A stretch of DNA of 56,264 bases from an uncultured Vicinamibacterales bacterium (GTDB lineage: Bacteria; Acidobacteriota; Vicinamibacteria; Vicinamibacterales; 2-12-FULL-66-21): the NCBI GenBank assembly GCA_964476725.1, contig CAYZBZ010000003.1:1849-58112 (forward strand), in the 5' to 3' direction. A model generated the notes under the pieces. The model made no database searches, was not told the origin of the DNA, and saw only the letters and a program-made list of their open reading frames with translations. Below are positions 13,200 through 20,797 of this stretch, piece after piece; the stretch's first letter is position 1; every line of letters begins with the position of its first letter. Made by a program: the position numbers and the translations under genes.

Positions 13200-14582
13200 A
13201 TGAACCGTCGTGACCTGCTGCAGTCGCTCTCGCTGGCTGGCGGAGCTTCCCTGGTTGCTTCCAGGGAGGCGCTGGCCGAGGCTCTCGAGATGACAACCCA
13301 CCCTGGCTACGCGCAGGCGGTGAAAGGCACCGCGCCGATCAAGATCCGCGACATCACGACCATCCTGACCGCGCCAAACCGGATCCGGCTGGTGATCGTG
13401 AAGATCGACACGACCGAGCCGGGGCTGGTCGGCTGGGGCTGCGCGACGTTCACGCAGCGTGCGCTGGTCGTCAGGACGGCGCTCGACCAGTATCTGAAGC
13501 CGTTTCTGATCGGCCGCAACGTGGACGAGATCGAAGACATCTGGCAGTCGAGCTATATGAGCTCGTATTGGCGCAACGGGCCAGTGCTCTTCAATGCCAT
13601 GAGCGGCGTGGACATCGCGCTGTGGGACATCAAGGGCAAACGCGCCGGGATGCCGCTCTACCAACTGCTCGGGGGCAAGGTCCGGCACGGCGCCGATTGT
13701 TATTTTCACGCCAGCGGCAACAGCTTCACCGAGGTCGAGGAGAACGCGCGCAAGGCAATGGAGCAGGGCTTCCGCCACGTGCGCGTGCAGGTCGCAACGC
13801 CCGGTTACGCCAGCTACGGTGCCCGCGGCACCGCGCCCGCGGCGGGGTCAGGCTCCCCCGATGAGGTCGTGGGACCGACCAACCCGAGAGCGGTCTGGGA
13901 ATCGGCCCCTTACGTGCGGATGCTTCCGAAGCTCTTCGAGCACCTGCGCGCCAAGCTCGGCGAAGAGGTCGAGCTCCTCCACGACGTGCACGAGCGCGTG
14001 ACGCTGAACCAGGCGATCAATCTGTGCAAGTCGCTCGAGCCCTATCGCCTGTTCTTCCTGGAGGATCCGTTCCCGCCCGAGGACAACGACCATTTCCGTC
14101 TGCTCCGGCAGCAGACCAGCATCCCGCTGGCGATGGGCGAGCTGTTCAACACGCAACATGAGTACTTGCCGCTCATCAAAGAGCGACTGATTGACTTCAT
14201 CCGGATCCACATCTCGCAGATTGGCGGGTTGAGCCCGGCGCGCAAGGTCGCGGCGCTGAGCGAGTATTTCGGCGTCCGCACCGCGTGGCACGGCCCTGGA
14301 GACGCGTCGCCGCTGGCGCACGCCGCGCAGCTCGCCCTGGAGCTGGCCAGCTACAACTTCGGCGTCCACGAAGGCGGCTCTTTCCCGAAAGAGACGCAGG
14401 ACGTCTTCGTCGGCTGCCCGGAAGTCAAGAACGGCTACATGCTGGCGCGGGAAAAGCCAGGTCTGGGCATCGAGGTCGACGAGAAGCTGGCGGCGAAGTT
14501 CCCGATACCCGACGGGCCGCCGAACTTTGATTACTCGTGGGGGACGACGCGGCGGCTGGATGGGACGGTGATCAGGCCGTAG
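13200..14582 (+). CDS. Enolase-superfamily dehydratase, D-mannonate dehydratase (ManD)/RspA-like subgroup, with a Tat signal
   Basis: Start set to the ATG at 13200 (GGAGG 8 nt upstream), giving MNRRDLLQSLSLAGGASLVASREALA. Core strings: GLVGWGCATF, SGVDIALWDIKGK, PLYQLLGG, FLEDP, HISQIGG, TAWHGPGD. Confidence 0.85.
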   Translation: MNRRDLLQSLSLAGGASLVASREALAEALEMTTHPGYAQAVKGTAPIKIRDITTILTAPNRIRLVIVKIDTTEPGLVGWGCATFTQRALVVRTALDQYLKPFLIGRNVDEIEDIWQSSYMSSYWRNGPVLFNAMSGVDIALWDIKGKRAGMPLYQLLGGKVRHGADCYFHASGNSFTEVEENARKAMEQGFRHVRVQVATPGYASYGARGTAPAAGSGSPDEVVGPTNPRAVWESAPYVRMLPKLFEHLRAKLGEEVELLHDVHERVTLNQAINLCKSLEPYRLFFLEDPFPPEDNDHFRLLRQQTSIPLAMGELFNTQHEYLPLIKERLIDFIRIHISQIGGLSPARKVAALSEYFGVRTAWHGPGDASPLAHAAQLALELASYNFGVHEGGSFPKETQDVFVGCPEVKNGYMLAREKPGLGIEVDEKLAAKFPIPDGPPNFDYSWGTTRRLDGTVIRP

Positions 14583-14664
14583 CACGCATGAAAGCGATCG
14601 GCTGGCTGCGCAGTCGCCTTTCGCCGACAGGCCAATCGGGGTAGCATTCCTGGCATCACTTCCA

Positions 14665-14697
14665 GGTTGGCCTCCGGTCCGGAGGCCAACCGTTTCC
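14665..14697 (+). terminator. Rho-independent-type terminator after the dehydratase gene
   Basis: ggttggcctccgg (14665-14677) and ccggaggccaacc (14679-14691) form a perfect 13-bp inverted repeat, followed by gtttcc. Confidence 0.7.
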
Positions 14698-14723
14698 GAC
14701 TCTGGACTTCTTCAGGAGATTAC

Positions 14724-18325: not shown

Positions 18326-18541
18326 AGTGAGTCCTCCAGGAGCGCGGTGGCGCCTTACGGAGATAGCACCTTTTGCACCTGGGCTGCAAGGACCTCAACG
18401 CGCCGGCCGGCGGGCGTCGCGAACCTCCTTCCCCACCTGACGGCCAGCGTCGATTGCCCGGGTGAGGTATAACAGGGCCATACGGAGAAGAATCTGCCCG
18501 CATCCGCCGACCTCGTCCGTCGCTCTTCGAAGGAGCCTCCA

Positions 18542-19570
18542 ATGACCTCGCCTGACGACACCGCCAACGGTCCGTTCGGTCCCATCTCGCGGCGTTCTGC
18601 GATAGGTTCGGCGCTGCTGGCTGGCGCTGCCTTTCTCGCGCCCGCCAGCGTCGGCGCTCAGGATGGGCGCGTGCCGGGCTCCGCAGCACCGGCGCCGCGG
18701 AAGCGGTACGACATGAAGAAGTCGATCAACCTCTGGGCGTTTCCCTATCCGCAAAAGATGACGCTGGTCCAGTGCCTGCAACTGGCGAAGGACGCTGGCT
18801 TCGACGGCATCGAGCTGAACTACGACCTCGACTCGGACATCTCCCCCAAGGCCGGAACCCCGGAATTCCAGGAGATCCGTCGCGCAGCCGACCGGATCGG
18901 GATCGCCATCAGCGGACTCTGCTCGTTCCTCTTCTGGCCCTATCCGCTGACGAGCAATGACGAGGCGAAGCGCAGCCGGGGCCTCGAACTTGCCGGCCGC
19001 ATGGCACACGCTGCCCACGACCTGGGCACGGAAAACGTGCTGGTGGTCCCGGGAGCGGTGCACATTCCCTGGCGCGACGACCACGAACCCGTCCGCAACG
19101 ACGTCTGCGATCGCCGGGCGCGGGAAGCGGTCGGCGCGCTGGTGAAGACCGCCGAGACGCTGAAGGTCCACCTGAACATCGAGAACATCTTCTTCAACGG
19201 GTATCTCATGTCGCCGATGGAGATGAACGGGTTCGTCGACAGCTTCGACAGCCCGCACGTGCGCGTCCATTTCGACACCGGGAACATCATGCTCTTCCAG
19301 CACCCCGAGCACTGGATTCCAATCCTGGGGCAGCGGATCCGCAACACTCATTTCAAGGAATTCACGAAGAAGGGCACCGACCACTCCCTGGAGTCGTTCC
19401 GGCCGCTCCTGGATGGGACGACCAACTGGCCGGCGGTCATGGACGGTCTGGAGGCTATCGGGTATCACGGCTACTGCACGTTCGAATACTTCCATCCGTA
19501 CGCGCATTATCCCGAAGCCCTCGTCTACCAGACCTCCGACTCGCTGGACCGGATCCTCGGCAGGAAGTGA
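18542..19570 (+). CDS. Sugar phosphate isomerase/epimerase (xylose-isomerase-like TIM barrel), Tat signal
   Basis: RBS GAAGGAG. Leader ISRRSAIGSALLAGAAFLAPASVGAQ. Strings GFDGIELNY, VLVVPGAVH, LNIENIFFNG and HFDTGNIM. Confidence 0.85.
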   Translation: MTSPDDTANGPFGPISRRSAIGSALLAGAAFLAPASVGAQDGRVPGSAAPAPRKRYDMKKSINLWAFPYPQKMTLVQCLQLAKDAGFDGIELNYDLDSDISPKAGTPEFQEIRRAADRIGIAISGLCSFLFWPYPLTSNDEAKRSRGLELAGRMAHAAHDLGTENVLVVPGAVHIPWRDDHEPVRNDVCDRRAREAVGALVKTAETLKVHLNIENIFFNGYLMSPMEMNGFVDSFDSPHVRVHFDTGNIMLFQHPEHWIPILGQRIRNTHFKEFTKKGTDHSLESFRPLLDGTTNWPAVMDGLEAIGYHGYCTFEYFHPYAHYPEALVYQTSDSLDRILGRK

Positions 19571-19600
19571 CACCGATCTGCGGTATATTCCGCGTCAGAG

Positions 19601-20797
19601 ATGAATCGACGTCAATGGCTCGCGGGGCTCGCGGCGACGCTGCCGATGTCGAGGGCGGTCCCCGACGTCCTGCGGCGGCAGCCAGCGCCGCCGGCGGCCC
19701 CGATACCGCTCGAACTCAAGGATTTTCAGCCGCGGAGCATGCTGAAGGTCCCGGCGACGCGGGTGCCGCGCGCGCGGGTGCCGGTGATCGACTTCCACAC
19801 GCATATCAGTTTCCGCGCGGCCGGAACTGGCGGCGTGCCGCAGGGCGAAGAGATGAGGTTCCTGGCGCCCGCCTCCGAGCTGCTGCAGGTCATGGATCGC
19901 GTCAACCTCCGCGTCATGGTGAACCTGACCGGCGGGGTCGGCAGCGGCCTCCAGCAGAGCATCCAGCGCTATCAGACCGCGCACCCAGGCCGGTTCCTGA
20001 CCTTCACCGAACCGCAGTACGCCCGCGTGAACGATCGAAACTACGCCCGCGAGCAGTCCGAGGACGTCGAGCGCGCCCACCGGCTCGGCGCGCGGGGCCT
20101 GAAGGTCCTCAAGACGCTTGGCCTGTACTTGCGAGAGCAGATTACGTCGGGTCCGCTCATCAAGATCGACGATCGGCGTTTCGATCCGATGTGGGAGGCC
20201 TGCGCGGCGAACGCCATGCCGGTGGCTATCCACGTCAGCGATCCTGAAGCGTTCTTTCTGCCGACCGATCGGTTCAACGAGCGGTTCGAGGAACTGAGCA
20301 ACCATCCGGACTGGTCGTTCCACGGCCGCGACTTTCCATCTAATCGGCAGCTGCTCGAAGCCAGAAACCGCGTCTTCGCACGGCATCCGAAGACCAGCTT
20401 CGTCGCGCTGCACGTGGGCCACGACGCGGAAGATCTGGGTTACGTGTCGGAGTGTCTCGACCGTCATCCAAACATGTACGTCGAGATAGGGGCGCGCGTT
20501 GGGGAGCTCGGGCGGCAACCGCGTGCCGCGCGACGCTTCTTCGAACGCTACCAGGATCGTATCCTGTTCGGCACCGATGCCGTGCCGCACGGGACCGAGA
20601 CTCCGCAGCAAATTTTCGGCGAGCCGCTGTACGAGATCTACTTCCGGTTTCTCGAGACCGAGGACGAGTATTTCGATTACGCGCCGGCGCCGACGCCGCC
20701 ACAAGGCCGCTGGCGGATCTACGGAATCGGTCTCCCCGAACCCATCCTGCGCAAGGTGTACTACGACAACGCGGCGCGGCTCCTCGGCCTGTCCTGA
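19601..20797 (+). CDS. Amidohydrolase_2-family metal-dependent hydrolase, Tat-like signal
   Basis: MNRRQWLAGLAATLPMSRAVP leader. VIDFHTHI metal-binding start, VAIHVSDP, LHVGH and ILFGTDA strings of the TIM-barrel amidohydrolase-2 family. Confidence 0.8.
   Translation: MNRRQWLAGLAATLPMSRAVPDVLRRQPAPPAAPIPLELKDFQPRSMLKVPATRVPRARVPVIDFHTHISFRAAGTGGVPQGEEMRFLAPASELLQVMDRVNLRVMVNLTGGVGSGLQQSIQRYQTAHPGRFLTFTEPQYARVNDRNYAREQSEDVERAHRLGARGLKVLKTLGLYLREQITSGPLIKIDDRRFDPMWEACAANAMPVAIHVSDPEAFFLPTDRFNERFEELSNHPDWSFHGRDFPSNRQLLEARNRVFARHPKTSFVALHVGHDAEDLGYVSECLDRHPNMYVEIGARVGELGRQPRAARRFFERYQDRILFGTDAVPHGTETPQQIFGEPLYEIYFRFLETEDEYFDYAPAPTPPQGRWRIYGIGLPEPILRKVYYDNAARLLGLS

Follow-up and report, generated by a model that had tools for sequence, protein, structure and literature searches.

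We analysed a 56,264-nucleotide stretch of DNA from an uncultured Vicinamibacterales bacterium (Acidobacteriota; GenBank assembly GCA_964476725.1, contig CAYZBZ010000003.1), hereafter the window, and focused on six consecutive genes at positions 13200-20797 (Table 1). These genes encode a ManD-type dehydratase of the enolase superfamily (hereafter ManD), a pyrroloquinoline quinone (PQQ) dehydrogenase, a dihaem cytochrome c-LamG fusion protein, a CBS-domain protein, a xylose-isomerase-like TIM barrel and an Amidohydro_2 protein. A sequence-only reading had proposed that five of the six are exported and together form one periplasmic oxidative sugar-acid pathway. We confirmed from the N-termini that five of the six genes encode export-type leaders, and the leader on ManD, which is of the twin-arginine translocation (Tat) type, is real at the level of sequence, conserved and widespread. 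The five-enzyme unit is unsupported; yet the idea of periplasmic oxidative sugar-acid metabolism gains independent support from the gene content of other Acidobacteriota loci, which hold partly different parts.

A ManD-type dehydratase with a conserved leader

Acid-sugar dehydratases of the enolase superfamily, and the oxidative sugar-acid routes to which they belong, are treated as cytoplasmic. The ManD of the window carries both enolase-superfamily domains (PF02746 at 2.3e-22 and PF13378 at 1.9e-46), and its best PDB matches were 3TW9, 3T6C and 4IHC (E ~1e-138), with alignments beginning at residue 29-46. These three proteins are reportedly D-gluconate dehydratases of low efficiency. The motifs HDVHER (residue 261), LEDP (residue 287) and GELF (residue 313) were the same in the 3TW9 and 3T6C alignments, and R162, E288 and E314 were invariant across 25 divergent sequences. 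We take D262, E288 and E314 to be putative Mg ligands and His264, in the D-x-H motif of HDVHER, to be the acid, alongside the conserved R162. The protein scored below the cut-offs of two curated models, NF043051 (410 bits; cut-off 550) and PRK15072 (407.3 bits; cut-off 430). Because its scores lie below the NCBIfam cut-offs, we filed it as a divergent relative of the ManD subgroup and not as an equivalog. The subgroup placement made from the sequence alone stood as far as alignment to 3TW9, 3T6C and 4IHC is concerned, and did not extend to membership by the curated models.

The N-terminus of ManD has a twin-arginine (RR) motif, a moderately hydrophobic h-region and an AxA-type c-region (MNRRDLLQSLSLAGGASLVAS..ALA). 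A Tat-type layout could also be read in the leaders of the TIM barrel (SRRSAIGSALLAGAAFLAP..VGA) and the Amidohydro_2 protein (NRRQWLAGLAATLPMSRA), and the motifs quoted in the sequence-only reading (NRRDLLQ, SRRSAIG and NRRQWLAG) are exact in the sequence. A Shine-Dalgarno site lies 7 nt 5' of the first ManD codon, which favours ATG 13200 as the genuine start codon; for the TIM barrel, AGGAG lies 7 nt 5' of ATG 18542. Among the 120 closest database homologues of ManD (85-95% identity), the RR of the leader was kept in every one (120/120), so that ManD's nearest relatives share the Tat-type leader. The majority-residue frequency was 0.66-0.80 in the leader and linker versus 0.93 in the mature domain, and the downstream Met30 was not conserved. 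A leader that drifts faster while its RR stays invariant, together with an unconserved Met30, is the pattern expected of a functional signal peptide and disfavours the downstream start that the sequence-only reading had considered. The TIM barrel leader was kept in 117 of 120 homologues and the RR leader of the Amidohydro_2 protein in 69 of 80 orthologues, the exceptions among the matches listed being truncated start calls.

Leaders also occurred further afield in the ManD subgroup. Among representatives clustered at 50% identity, whose leaders were sorted by eye, RR leaders were found in several clusters at 43-55% identity (P0122, P0133, P0137, P0147, P0152, P0198, P0131, P0143 and P0264); all canonical ManD clusters and some others, one of them at 59% identity, were leaderless. 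The leader-bearing clusters shared a branch with the ManD of the window in a rough neighbour-joining tree of these representatives, on which the automatic leader labels were partly wrong. Overall, Vicinamibacteria, Blastocatellia and other Acidobacteriota contribute thousands of metagenomic sequences to the Tat-leader ManD family. A literature search for Tat-exported or periplasmic ManD, enolase-superfamily dehydratases and periplasmic gluconate dehydratase found no relevant paper, which is not proof of absence.

Export-type N-termini, read by eye, were present in approximately 18 of the 43 genes of the window (~42%). Given this background, finding five exported proteins in any six-gene frame has a chance of about 5%. 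The density of leaders in the cluster is unremarkable by itself; what is remarkable is the family, ManD, that bears one. No tatABC gene was recognised among the annotated genes of the 56 kb window. A home-made signal-peptide score picked out ABC ATPases and the CBS protein while failing to detect half of the ManD set, and was dropped as unspecific and insensitive; a stricter RR rule was applied to the partner families only.

The region upstream of ManD has features of its own. The segment at 12724-13147 had a depth of 65x and 638x in two metagenome contig sets, compared with ~5-20x in its flanks. It contains a GC-rich segment (GCCTCCGCCAAGGCTGCGGCGGTCCGCCGAAGCCGCGCGAAGGCGGAAGC) and short direct repeats in tandem (CCACGTTC and GAACCTTG, each twice) that immediately precede the ribosome-binding site of ManD, and is probably a multi-copy repeat. 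An open reading frame (ORF) of 158 amino acids (aa) at 12461-12937 (+) shows similarity only to the C-terminal portion of a sigma-54 interaction domain and has the look of a truncated activator; it also lies upstream of ManD in two close relatives (L165 and L167, L numbers being our labels for the loci compared). This fragment gave rise to the idea of a sigma-54 promoter upstream of ManD, which we rejected, as no convincing -24/-12 element was seen by eye. A tripartite ATP-independent periplasmic (TRAP) transporter, consisting of DctP and a fused DctQM, is encoded a few kb upstream of ManD in L166 (3766-6594) and L167 (1-1059), where the window has an aldo/keto reductase gene (4523-5518); organic or sugar acids might be taken up through this transporter. 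At 1259-2260 (+), 11 kb from ManD, the window encodes an exported esterase (PF00756) that is 85% identical to the esterase of L034, L036, L038, L040 and L042, in which the gene order is esterase, DUF6786, ManD.

The redox pair, the TIM barrel and the Amidohydro_2 protein

The PQQ enzyme scored 552.9 bits against TIGR03075 (cut-off 480) and 530.6 bits against TIGR04528, the 'acido-empty-quinoprotein group A' model, which is under the cut-off of 650. Its best PDB match was PedH (6ZCV), with 'hdtrdwd' aligned to 'hdgwdfd', and it has both a vicinal Cys pair and a DWD (DxD) motif that aligns with the DFD of PedH (Table 1). By these matches, it is a lanthanide-type member of the methanol/ethanol family, closest to PedH, and not of the glucose-dehydrogenase type, which speaks against the sugar-to-lactone role given to it in the sequence-only reading. 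A sugar might still be its substrate, because 4MH1, named sorbose dehydrogenase, was among its PDB matches. No pqq genes were recognised among the annotated genes of the window.

The upstream TTG of the PQQ ORF has no ribosome-binding site. A good Shine-Dalgarno site (AGGAGA, 14714-14719) is followed only by ATT 14724 or CTG 14727, with no ATG, GTG or TTG at a proper distance. This layout points to a rare start codon, the probable start being ATT 14724 or CTG 14727, or to a poorly initiated upstream TTG, and the exact start is uncertain. Whichever start is used, the enzyme retains a hydrophobic leader of the general secretory (Sec) type ending LAVGALA-QS. The ATG of the cytochrome gene overlaps the PQQ stop codon (TGATG), which suggests that the two genes are translationally coupled. 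In L001 (7167-8713), cytochrome c and LamG are encoded by two overlapping ORFs, the LamG protein having its own signal peptide; in the window they are fused, and this pattern of fusion versus split suggests that the two proteins work jointly. Elsewhere in the window, at 52891-55697 (+), a gene for cytochrome c precedes one for a multihaem cytochrome with weak MtrC/NrfB-like matches, and both products have signal peptides.

The nearest folds to the predicted model of the TIM barrel (predicted local distance difference test score, pLDDT, 69.5) were ketose 3-epimerases, UlaE and the 3-keto-glucoside epimerase YcjR, with template modelling (TM) scores of 0.60-0.68. The model points to keto-sugar chemistry, for which the aldonate route has no step. 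Orthologues of the TIM barrel were found next to a six-bladed GSDH, with DUF7133-HEAT, cytochrome c and a second TIM barrel, or among unrelated genes on a Verrucomicrobia contig. The window also encodes, on the minus strand, a GFO/IDH/MocA oxidoreductase with a Sec-type leader (2301-3413) and another xylose-isomerase-like TIM barrel with a Tat-type leader (MIRVNRRTFLGTMGAAVMS; 3440-4306), a pair that is kept in L166.

The Amidohydro_2 protein matched PF04909 at 2.8e-23, with H66, H68, H211, H271 and D326 invariant. A sequence search of the PDB gave no match to it, and a PDB profile search reached only dihydroxybenzoate decarboxylase (E=0.024). When its AlphaFold model (pLDDT 73.6) was submitted to Foldseek, decarboxylases came first, LigI 14th and 4DLF 30th, with TM scores of 0.43-0.51. 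Such weak matches of a predicted fold do not separate lactonase, decarboxylase and hydratase, and the lactonase role suggested in the sequence-only reading is neither confirmed nor excluded by them. Its orthologues belong to a different, conserved glycan locus, which also encodes another PQQ dehydrogenase, a TonB receptor, a DeoR regulator and DUF4832/GH42-like, acetyl-xylan-esterase-like, CBM9, BNR/sortilin, SIS and DUF5107-TPR proteins.

The window has a G+C content of ~65%, and its best genome matches were metagenome-assembled genomes of Acidobacteriota labelled gp6 or Vicinamibacterales. Its exact sequence was present in permafrost metagenome runs; contigs holding the region came only from permafrost and soil metagenomes, and a search for usable RNA runs came back empty. 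A scan of the whole window against Rfam returned no match, and a promoter and terminator scan returned sites no more numerous than in shuffled sequence. Because the CBS gene lies on the opposite strand, the cluster is divided into at least two transcription units. The three genes that follow the cluster (Table 1) are context, outside any sugar-acid route. Further away, at 30832-31299 and 34066-35313 (+), two paralogous ORFs have near-identical N-termini (MRILLA.. NAYTD.TSGAA.SMRI.MQWL...); the first, of 155 aa, may be a truncated duplicate.

Table 1. Features of the cluster and of the genes that follow it, in window coordinates.
Feature	Position	Strand	Details
Shine-Dalgarno site of ManD	13188..13192	+	GGAGG, read from sequence
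ManD-type enolase-superfamily dehydratase	13200-14582	+	460 aa; MR_MLE_N and MR_MLE_C domains
ManD Tat-type leader, residues 1-26	13200..13277	+	MNRRDLLQSLSLAGGASLVASREALA; predicted cleavage after ALA
PQQ dehydrogenase ORF	14667-16370	+	Lanthanide-type by sequence, methanol/ethanol family, eight-bladed; Sec-type leader
Vicinal Cys pair of PQQ enzyme, residues 155-156	15129-15134	+	
DWD (DxD) motif of PQQ enzyme, residues 332-334	15660-15668	+	
Dihaem cytochrome c-LamG fusion	16370-17821	+	483 aa; Cytochrome_CBB3, Cytochrom_C and Laminin_G_3 domains; TIGR02603 haem-binding domain
Sec-type leader of cytochrome c-LamG	N-terminus of 16370-17821	+	MRRTFLIACCWISCVLAAPA
CxxCH haem motifs of cytochrome c-LamG	16538-16552, 16805-16819	+	Two motifs
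LamG domain	~17318-17794	+	Part of the cytochrome c-LamG fusion
CBS-domain pair protein	17876-18325	-	149 aa; two CBS domains; no leader, cytoplasmic; convergent with the cytochrome gene
Xylose-isomerase-like TIM barrel	18542-19570	+	342 aa; PF01261; Tat-type leader
TIM barrel Tat-type leader, residues 1-39	18542-18658	+	...GPISRRSAIGSALLAGAAFLAPASVGA
Amidohydro_2 (PF04909) metal-dependent hydrolase-fold protein	19601-20797	+	398 aa; Tat-type leader
Amidohydro_2 Tat-type leader, residues 1-19	19601-19657	+	MNRRQWLAGLAATLPMSRA
TPR protein	20864-22018	+	Pfam match; export-type N-terminus; downstream context
FG-GAP/ASPIC protein	22015-23673	+	Pfam match; export-type N-terminus; downstream context
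Weak ThuA-like protein	23797-24879	+	Pfam match; export-type N-terminus; downstream context

Gene neighbourhoods in relatives and across Acidobacteriota

We compared the neighbourhoods of ManD in 80 species-level Acidobacteriota loci. The Amidohydro_2 gene of the window was present in 2 of these 80 loci, the cytochrome-LamG gene in 1 of 80 and the TIM barrel gene in 0 of 80. Likewise, none of the 80 metagenomic loci with orthologues of the Amidohydro_2 protein (64-79% identity) held ManD or the TIM barrel (0/80). Judged by synteny, the six genes that the sequence-only reading had treated as a set are not co-conserved, and the cluster is a mosaic.

The slot after ManD was variable even among near relatives. 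In L167 (ManD 95% identical), ManD is followed directly by the opposite-strand CBS gene. In L166 (94%), the order is ManD, a gene for a cytoplasmic zinc-dependent alcohol dehydrogenase (Zn-ADH) without a leader, CBS (-), TIM barrel and Amidohydro_2, and in L165 (89%), ManD is followed by a 329-aa gene (-), CBS (-), ~6 kb of unrelated genes and Amidohydro_2, with no PQQ, cytochrome or TIM barrel gene. A ManD...CBS (-) backbone is common to all three loci, making CBS a stable neighbour of ManD in close relatives, and among these near relatives only the window has the PQQ/cytochrome pair between the two. A second backbone, Amidohydro_2...FG-GAP/ASPIC...357-aa protein, is also present in L165. Across genomes, only the PQQ-cytochrome pair and, loosely, ManD-PQQ recurred. 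Within the window, comparative evidence from gene order favours a link of ManD with the PQQ/cytochrome pair only.

Gene calling and clustering across the 80 loci showed that the most frequent partners within 3 kb of ManD were another enolase-superfamily gene (33/80), a TonB-dependent receptor-like gene (20/80), a PQQ dehydrogenase gene (19/80, in at least five arrangements) and an RraA-like gene (15/80), followed by genes for an SGNH esterase (8/80), an Amidohydro_2 protein (6/80) and a UxuA-like protein (5/80). The partner proteins bear leaders, many of them near-consensus Tat (RRNFLK, RRSFFK and RRGFLR). L001 has a tight same-strand array of genes that overlap or nearly abut, encoding an Amidohydro_2-like protein, a PQQ dehydrogenase orthologous to that of the window (83% identity), cytochrome c, LamG, a Tat-leader enolase and ManD. 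In L038-type loci, the gene after ManD encodes a membrane protein and the next one a 315-aa Tat-leader Amidohydro_2 protein, whose best PDB match (E=1e-22) was 4DLF, a COG3618 enzyme of Burkholderia multivorans; we take its family to be that of L-fucono-1,5-lactonase. A third arrangement was found in Blastocatellia (L051, 2602-11386; L048 and L062), where genes for a TonB-dependent receptor, an RraA-like protein, a Tat-leader enolase, an SGNH esterase and a Tat-leader ManD follow one another on the same strand; all of these proteins have leaders, and no inner-membrane transporter gene was found inside this receptor-to-ManD array. An exported RraA-like protein cannot regulate the cytoplasmic RNase E, so an enzymatic role is more likely for it, for example one akin to that of the related HMG/CHA aldolase 3NOJ.

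The quinoproteins next to ManD fell into two types. Those of the window and L001 (type A) combine the vicinal Cys pair with a separate cytochrome; those of 18 loci (type B) are fused at the N-terminus to cytochrome c and lack the Cys pair. The lanthanide DxD motif is common to the two types. That ManD recurs with two types of PQQ enzyme, and in several gene orders, suggests that its function is linked to oxidation by quinoproteins.

Interpretation and comparison with known systems

We put it at somewhat better than even that at least three modules, inherited separately and all encoding periplasmic enzymes of a soil acidobacterium related to Vicinamibacteria (subdivision 6), make up the cluster as a mosaic. 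The first module would be the stand-alone Tat-leader ManD, which would fold and oligomerise with Mg2+ in the cytoplasm, be exported in the folded state via the Tat system and dehydrate a gluconate- or mannonate-type aldonic acid to a 2-keto-3-deoxy acid in the periplasm. The second would be the translationally coupled redox pair of the lanthanide-type PQQ dehydrogenase and the dihaem cytochrome c-LamG, through which electrons taken from an alcohol, an aldehyde or a sugar would reach the respiratory chain. The third would consist of the Tat-leader ketose-epimerase-like TIM barrel and the Tat-leader Amidohydro_2 protein, which are separate from each other in other genomes. Whether the PQQ enzyme of the window feeds ManD is a more tentative matter, to which we give slightly less than an even chance. 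What we observed is the gene content, the leaders with their conservation, the catalytic motifs and the synteny; export, substrates and flux from one enzyme to the next are inferred.

Several findings weigh against this picture. ManD scores below both curated models, so its family does not fix its substrate. The Tat leader hidden Markov models (HMMs) fell just short of their cut-offs on the ManD leader (PF10518, 14.8 bits against 22.7; TIGR01409, 15.4 against 16.7) and did not match the leaders of the TIM barrel or the Amidohydro_2 protein. The recurrent ManD-PQQ adjacency elsewhere involves type B enzymes, which are only 43-45% identical to the PQQ enzyme of the window. Finally, the 56 kb window has no second enolase, RraA-like, UxuA-like, COG3618-like lactonase or TonB receptor gene.

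In the single linear pathway proposed for all five exported proteins, the PQQ enzyme would oxidise a sugar to a lactone with electrons passing to the cytochrome, the Amidohydro_2 protein would convert the lactone to an aldonate and ManD would convert the aldonate to a 2-keto-3-deoxy acid. Every part is indeed present with a leader, the L001 array brings Amidohydro_2-like, PQQ, cytochrome c, LamG, enolase and ManD genes tightly together, the TIM barrel gene adjoins Amidohydro_2 near ManD in L166, and the sorbose dehydrogenase name of 4MH1 implies that the PQQ family can act on sugars. However, the gene set is not co-conserved, and in relatives whose ManD is 89-95% identical the slot after ManD lacks the PQQ/cytochrome pair. 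The Amidohydro_2 protein of the window is only 37% identical to that of L001, has no lactonase relative in the PDB and has fold matches that do not discriminate, and its orthologues lie in unrelated glycan loci. The ketose-epimerase-like TIM barrel would have no role, and the opposite-strand CBS gene imposes at least two transcription units. We regard this pathway as improbable. What endures of it is the ManD leader, together with the exported sugar-acid enzymes beside ManD orthologues and loci of the L001 and L038 types; what does not is the joint inheritance of the six genes. The opposite case, that the genes are functionally unrelated and lie side by side as a by-product of a genome rich in exported proteins, also appears rather unlikely. 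ManD would then act alone on soil sugar acids, the PQQ/cytochrome pair would be an independent alcohol-oxidising respiratory module, and the TIM barrel and Amidohydro_2 proteins would act on other glycan-derived substrates. Such independence would fit the high share of export-type N-termini in the window, the differing slot after ManD, the alcohol-dehydrogenase type of the PedH-like PQQ enzyme and the different conserved contexts that the TIM barrel and Amidohydro_2 orthologues each have. Chance is nevertheless hard to credit for a PQQ dehydrogenase gene within 3 kb of ManD in 19 of 80 loci and in several arrangements, or for the L001 ManD adjoining a PQQ/cytochrome/LamG module orthologous to that of the window.

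ManD could, by contrast, be cytoplasmic if the leaders were non-functional, either because the true starts lie downstream or because the N-terminal extensions have another role. The HMM results fit this view, as does an internal Met57 of the TIM barrel (MKKSINLWAF), which is conserved and serves as the start in a few database entries. Strong Shine-Dalgarno sites nonetheless precede the upstream ATGs of ManD and the TIM barrel, RR and the hydrophobic stretch are conserved while the linker drifts, as in signal peptides, and the downstream Met of ManD is not conserved. In addition, one Amidohydro_2 paralogue has a Sec-type leader in place of the Tat-type one, and near-consensus Tat motifs occur in neighbouring paralogues, some of which, in partner families of other loci, match PF10518 at 26.2 and 19.6 bits. 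We consider non-functional leaders highly improbable.

Returning to the mosaic of periplasmic modules, the neighbourhoods of its relatives make it plausible that the Tat-leader ManD is part of a recurring set of exported sugar-acid-type enzymes encoded beside TonB-dependent receptors, and that the lineage carries out periplasmic sugar-acid catabolism. A stronger proposal is that soil Acidobacteriota as a lineage possess a complete, non-phosphorylative Entner-Doudoroff-like sequence in the periplasm, acting straight after TonB-dependent uptake, with the Tat-leader ManD of the window as one conserved component. In it, lanthanide/PQQ enzymes would carry out the oxidation with electrons going to cytochrome c, a COG3618-type enzyme would hydrolyse the lactone, Tat-exported dehydratases of the enolase superfamily and of the UxuA-like kind would catalyse the dehydration, and an RraA-like exported enzyme would perform the aldol cleavage. 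This complete sequence we think fairly unlikely.

A family of Tat-leader ManD proteins whose neighbours are lanthanide-type quinoproteins and other exported proteins of dehydratase, lactonase and aldolase type suggests that part of central carbohydrate catabolism may take place in the periplasm of abundant soil bacteria. If so, models of carbon flux and energy conservation in hard-to-culture Acidobacteriota would have to change, sugar metabolism would be tied to lanthanide-dependent quinoproteins, and many ManD-subgroup proteins without a known physiological role would gain a concrete and testable one.

The window proteins resemble known systems in part. ManD shares with the solved proteins of the ManD subgroup (3TW9, 3T6C and 4IHC) both domains, the HDVHER, LEDP and GELF motifs and an alignment over nearly the whole mature length; unlike them, it has a 45-residue N-terminal Tat-type leader and linker. 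The redox pair resembles the lanthanide-dependent PQQ alcohol dehydrogenases PedH, ExaF and XoxF with their cytochrome c partners PedF, ExaB and XoxG in its eight-bladed PQQ propeller, vicinal Cys pair, DxD motif and directly downstream, coupled cytochrome c gene. It differs in that the partner is a dihaem cytochrome (TIGR02603) fused to LamG and encoded beside a sugar-acid dehydratase. In gut Bacteroidetes, the periplasmic 3-keto-glycoside (AL/BT) pathway relies on exported TIM barrels that are sugar-phosphate-isomerase-like, together with a Gfo/Idh/MocA oxidoreductase that bears a Tat signal (bioRxiv 10.1101/2024.03.25.586180). The window has a similar GFO/IDH/MocA and TIM barrel pair at 2301-4306 and a further Tat-leader TIM barrel in the cluster. 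However, it has no DUF1080 partner, the TIM barrel at 18542 is by fold nearest to ketose 3-epimerases and YcjR, and the AL/BT pathway has no known link to ManD.

Oxidation of sugars outside the cytoplasm has precedents. Pseudomonas and Gluconobacter oxidise glucose in the periplasm, and Zymomonas has a Tat-exported glucose-fructose oxidoreductase and a periplasmic gluconolactonase. The likeness to our proposal lies in the conversion of a sugar to a lactone and an aldonate outside the cytoplasm and in the export of a cytoplasmic-type sugar enzyme in the folded state by Tat. We know of no periplasmic dehydratase or aldolase step in these systems, in which the aldonates are imported and phosphorylated. 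The cytoplasmic non-phosphorylative Entner-Doudoroff, Weimberg and Dahms routes consist of an aldose dehydrogenase, a lactonase, an aldonate dehydratase and a keto-deoxy-acid aldolase. At the level of the lineage, the Acidobacteriota loci offer a dehydrogenase, a COG3618-like lactonase, enolase-superfamily dehydratases and an RraA-like putative aldolase in a matching order of chemistry. In contrast to those routes, the Acidobacteriota candidates all have export leaders, and the oxidation would be carried out by a cytochrome c-linked PQQ enzyme instead of an NAD(P)-linked one.

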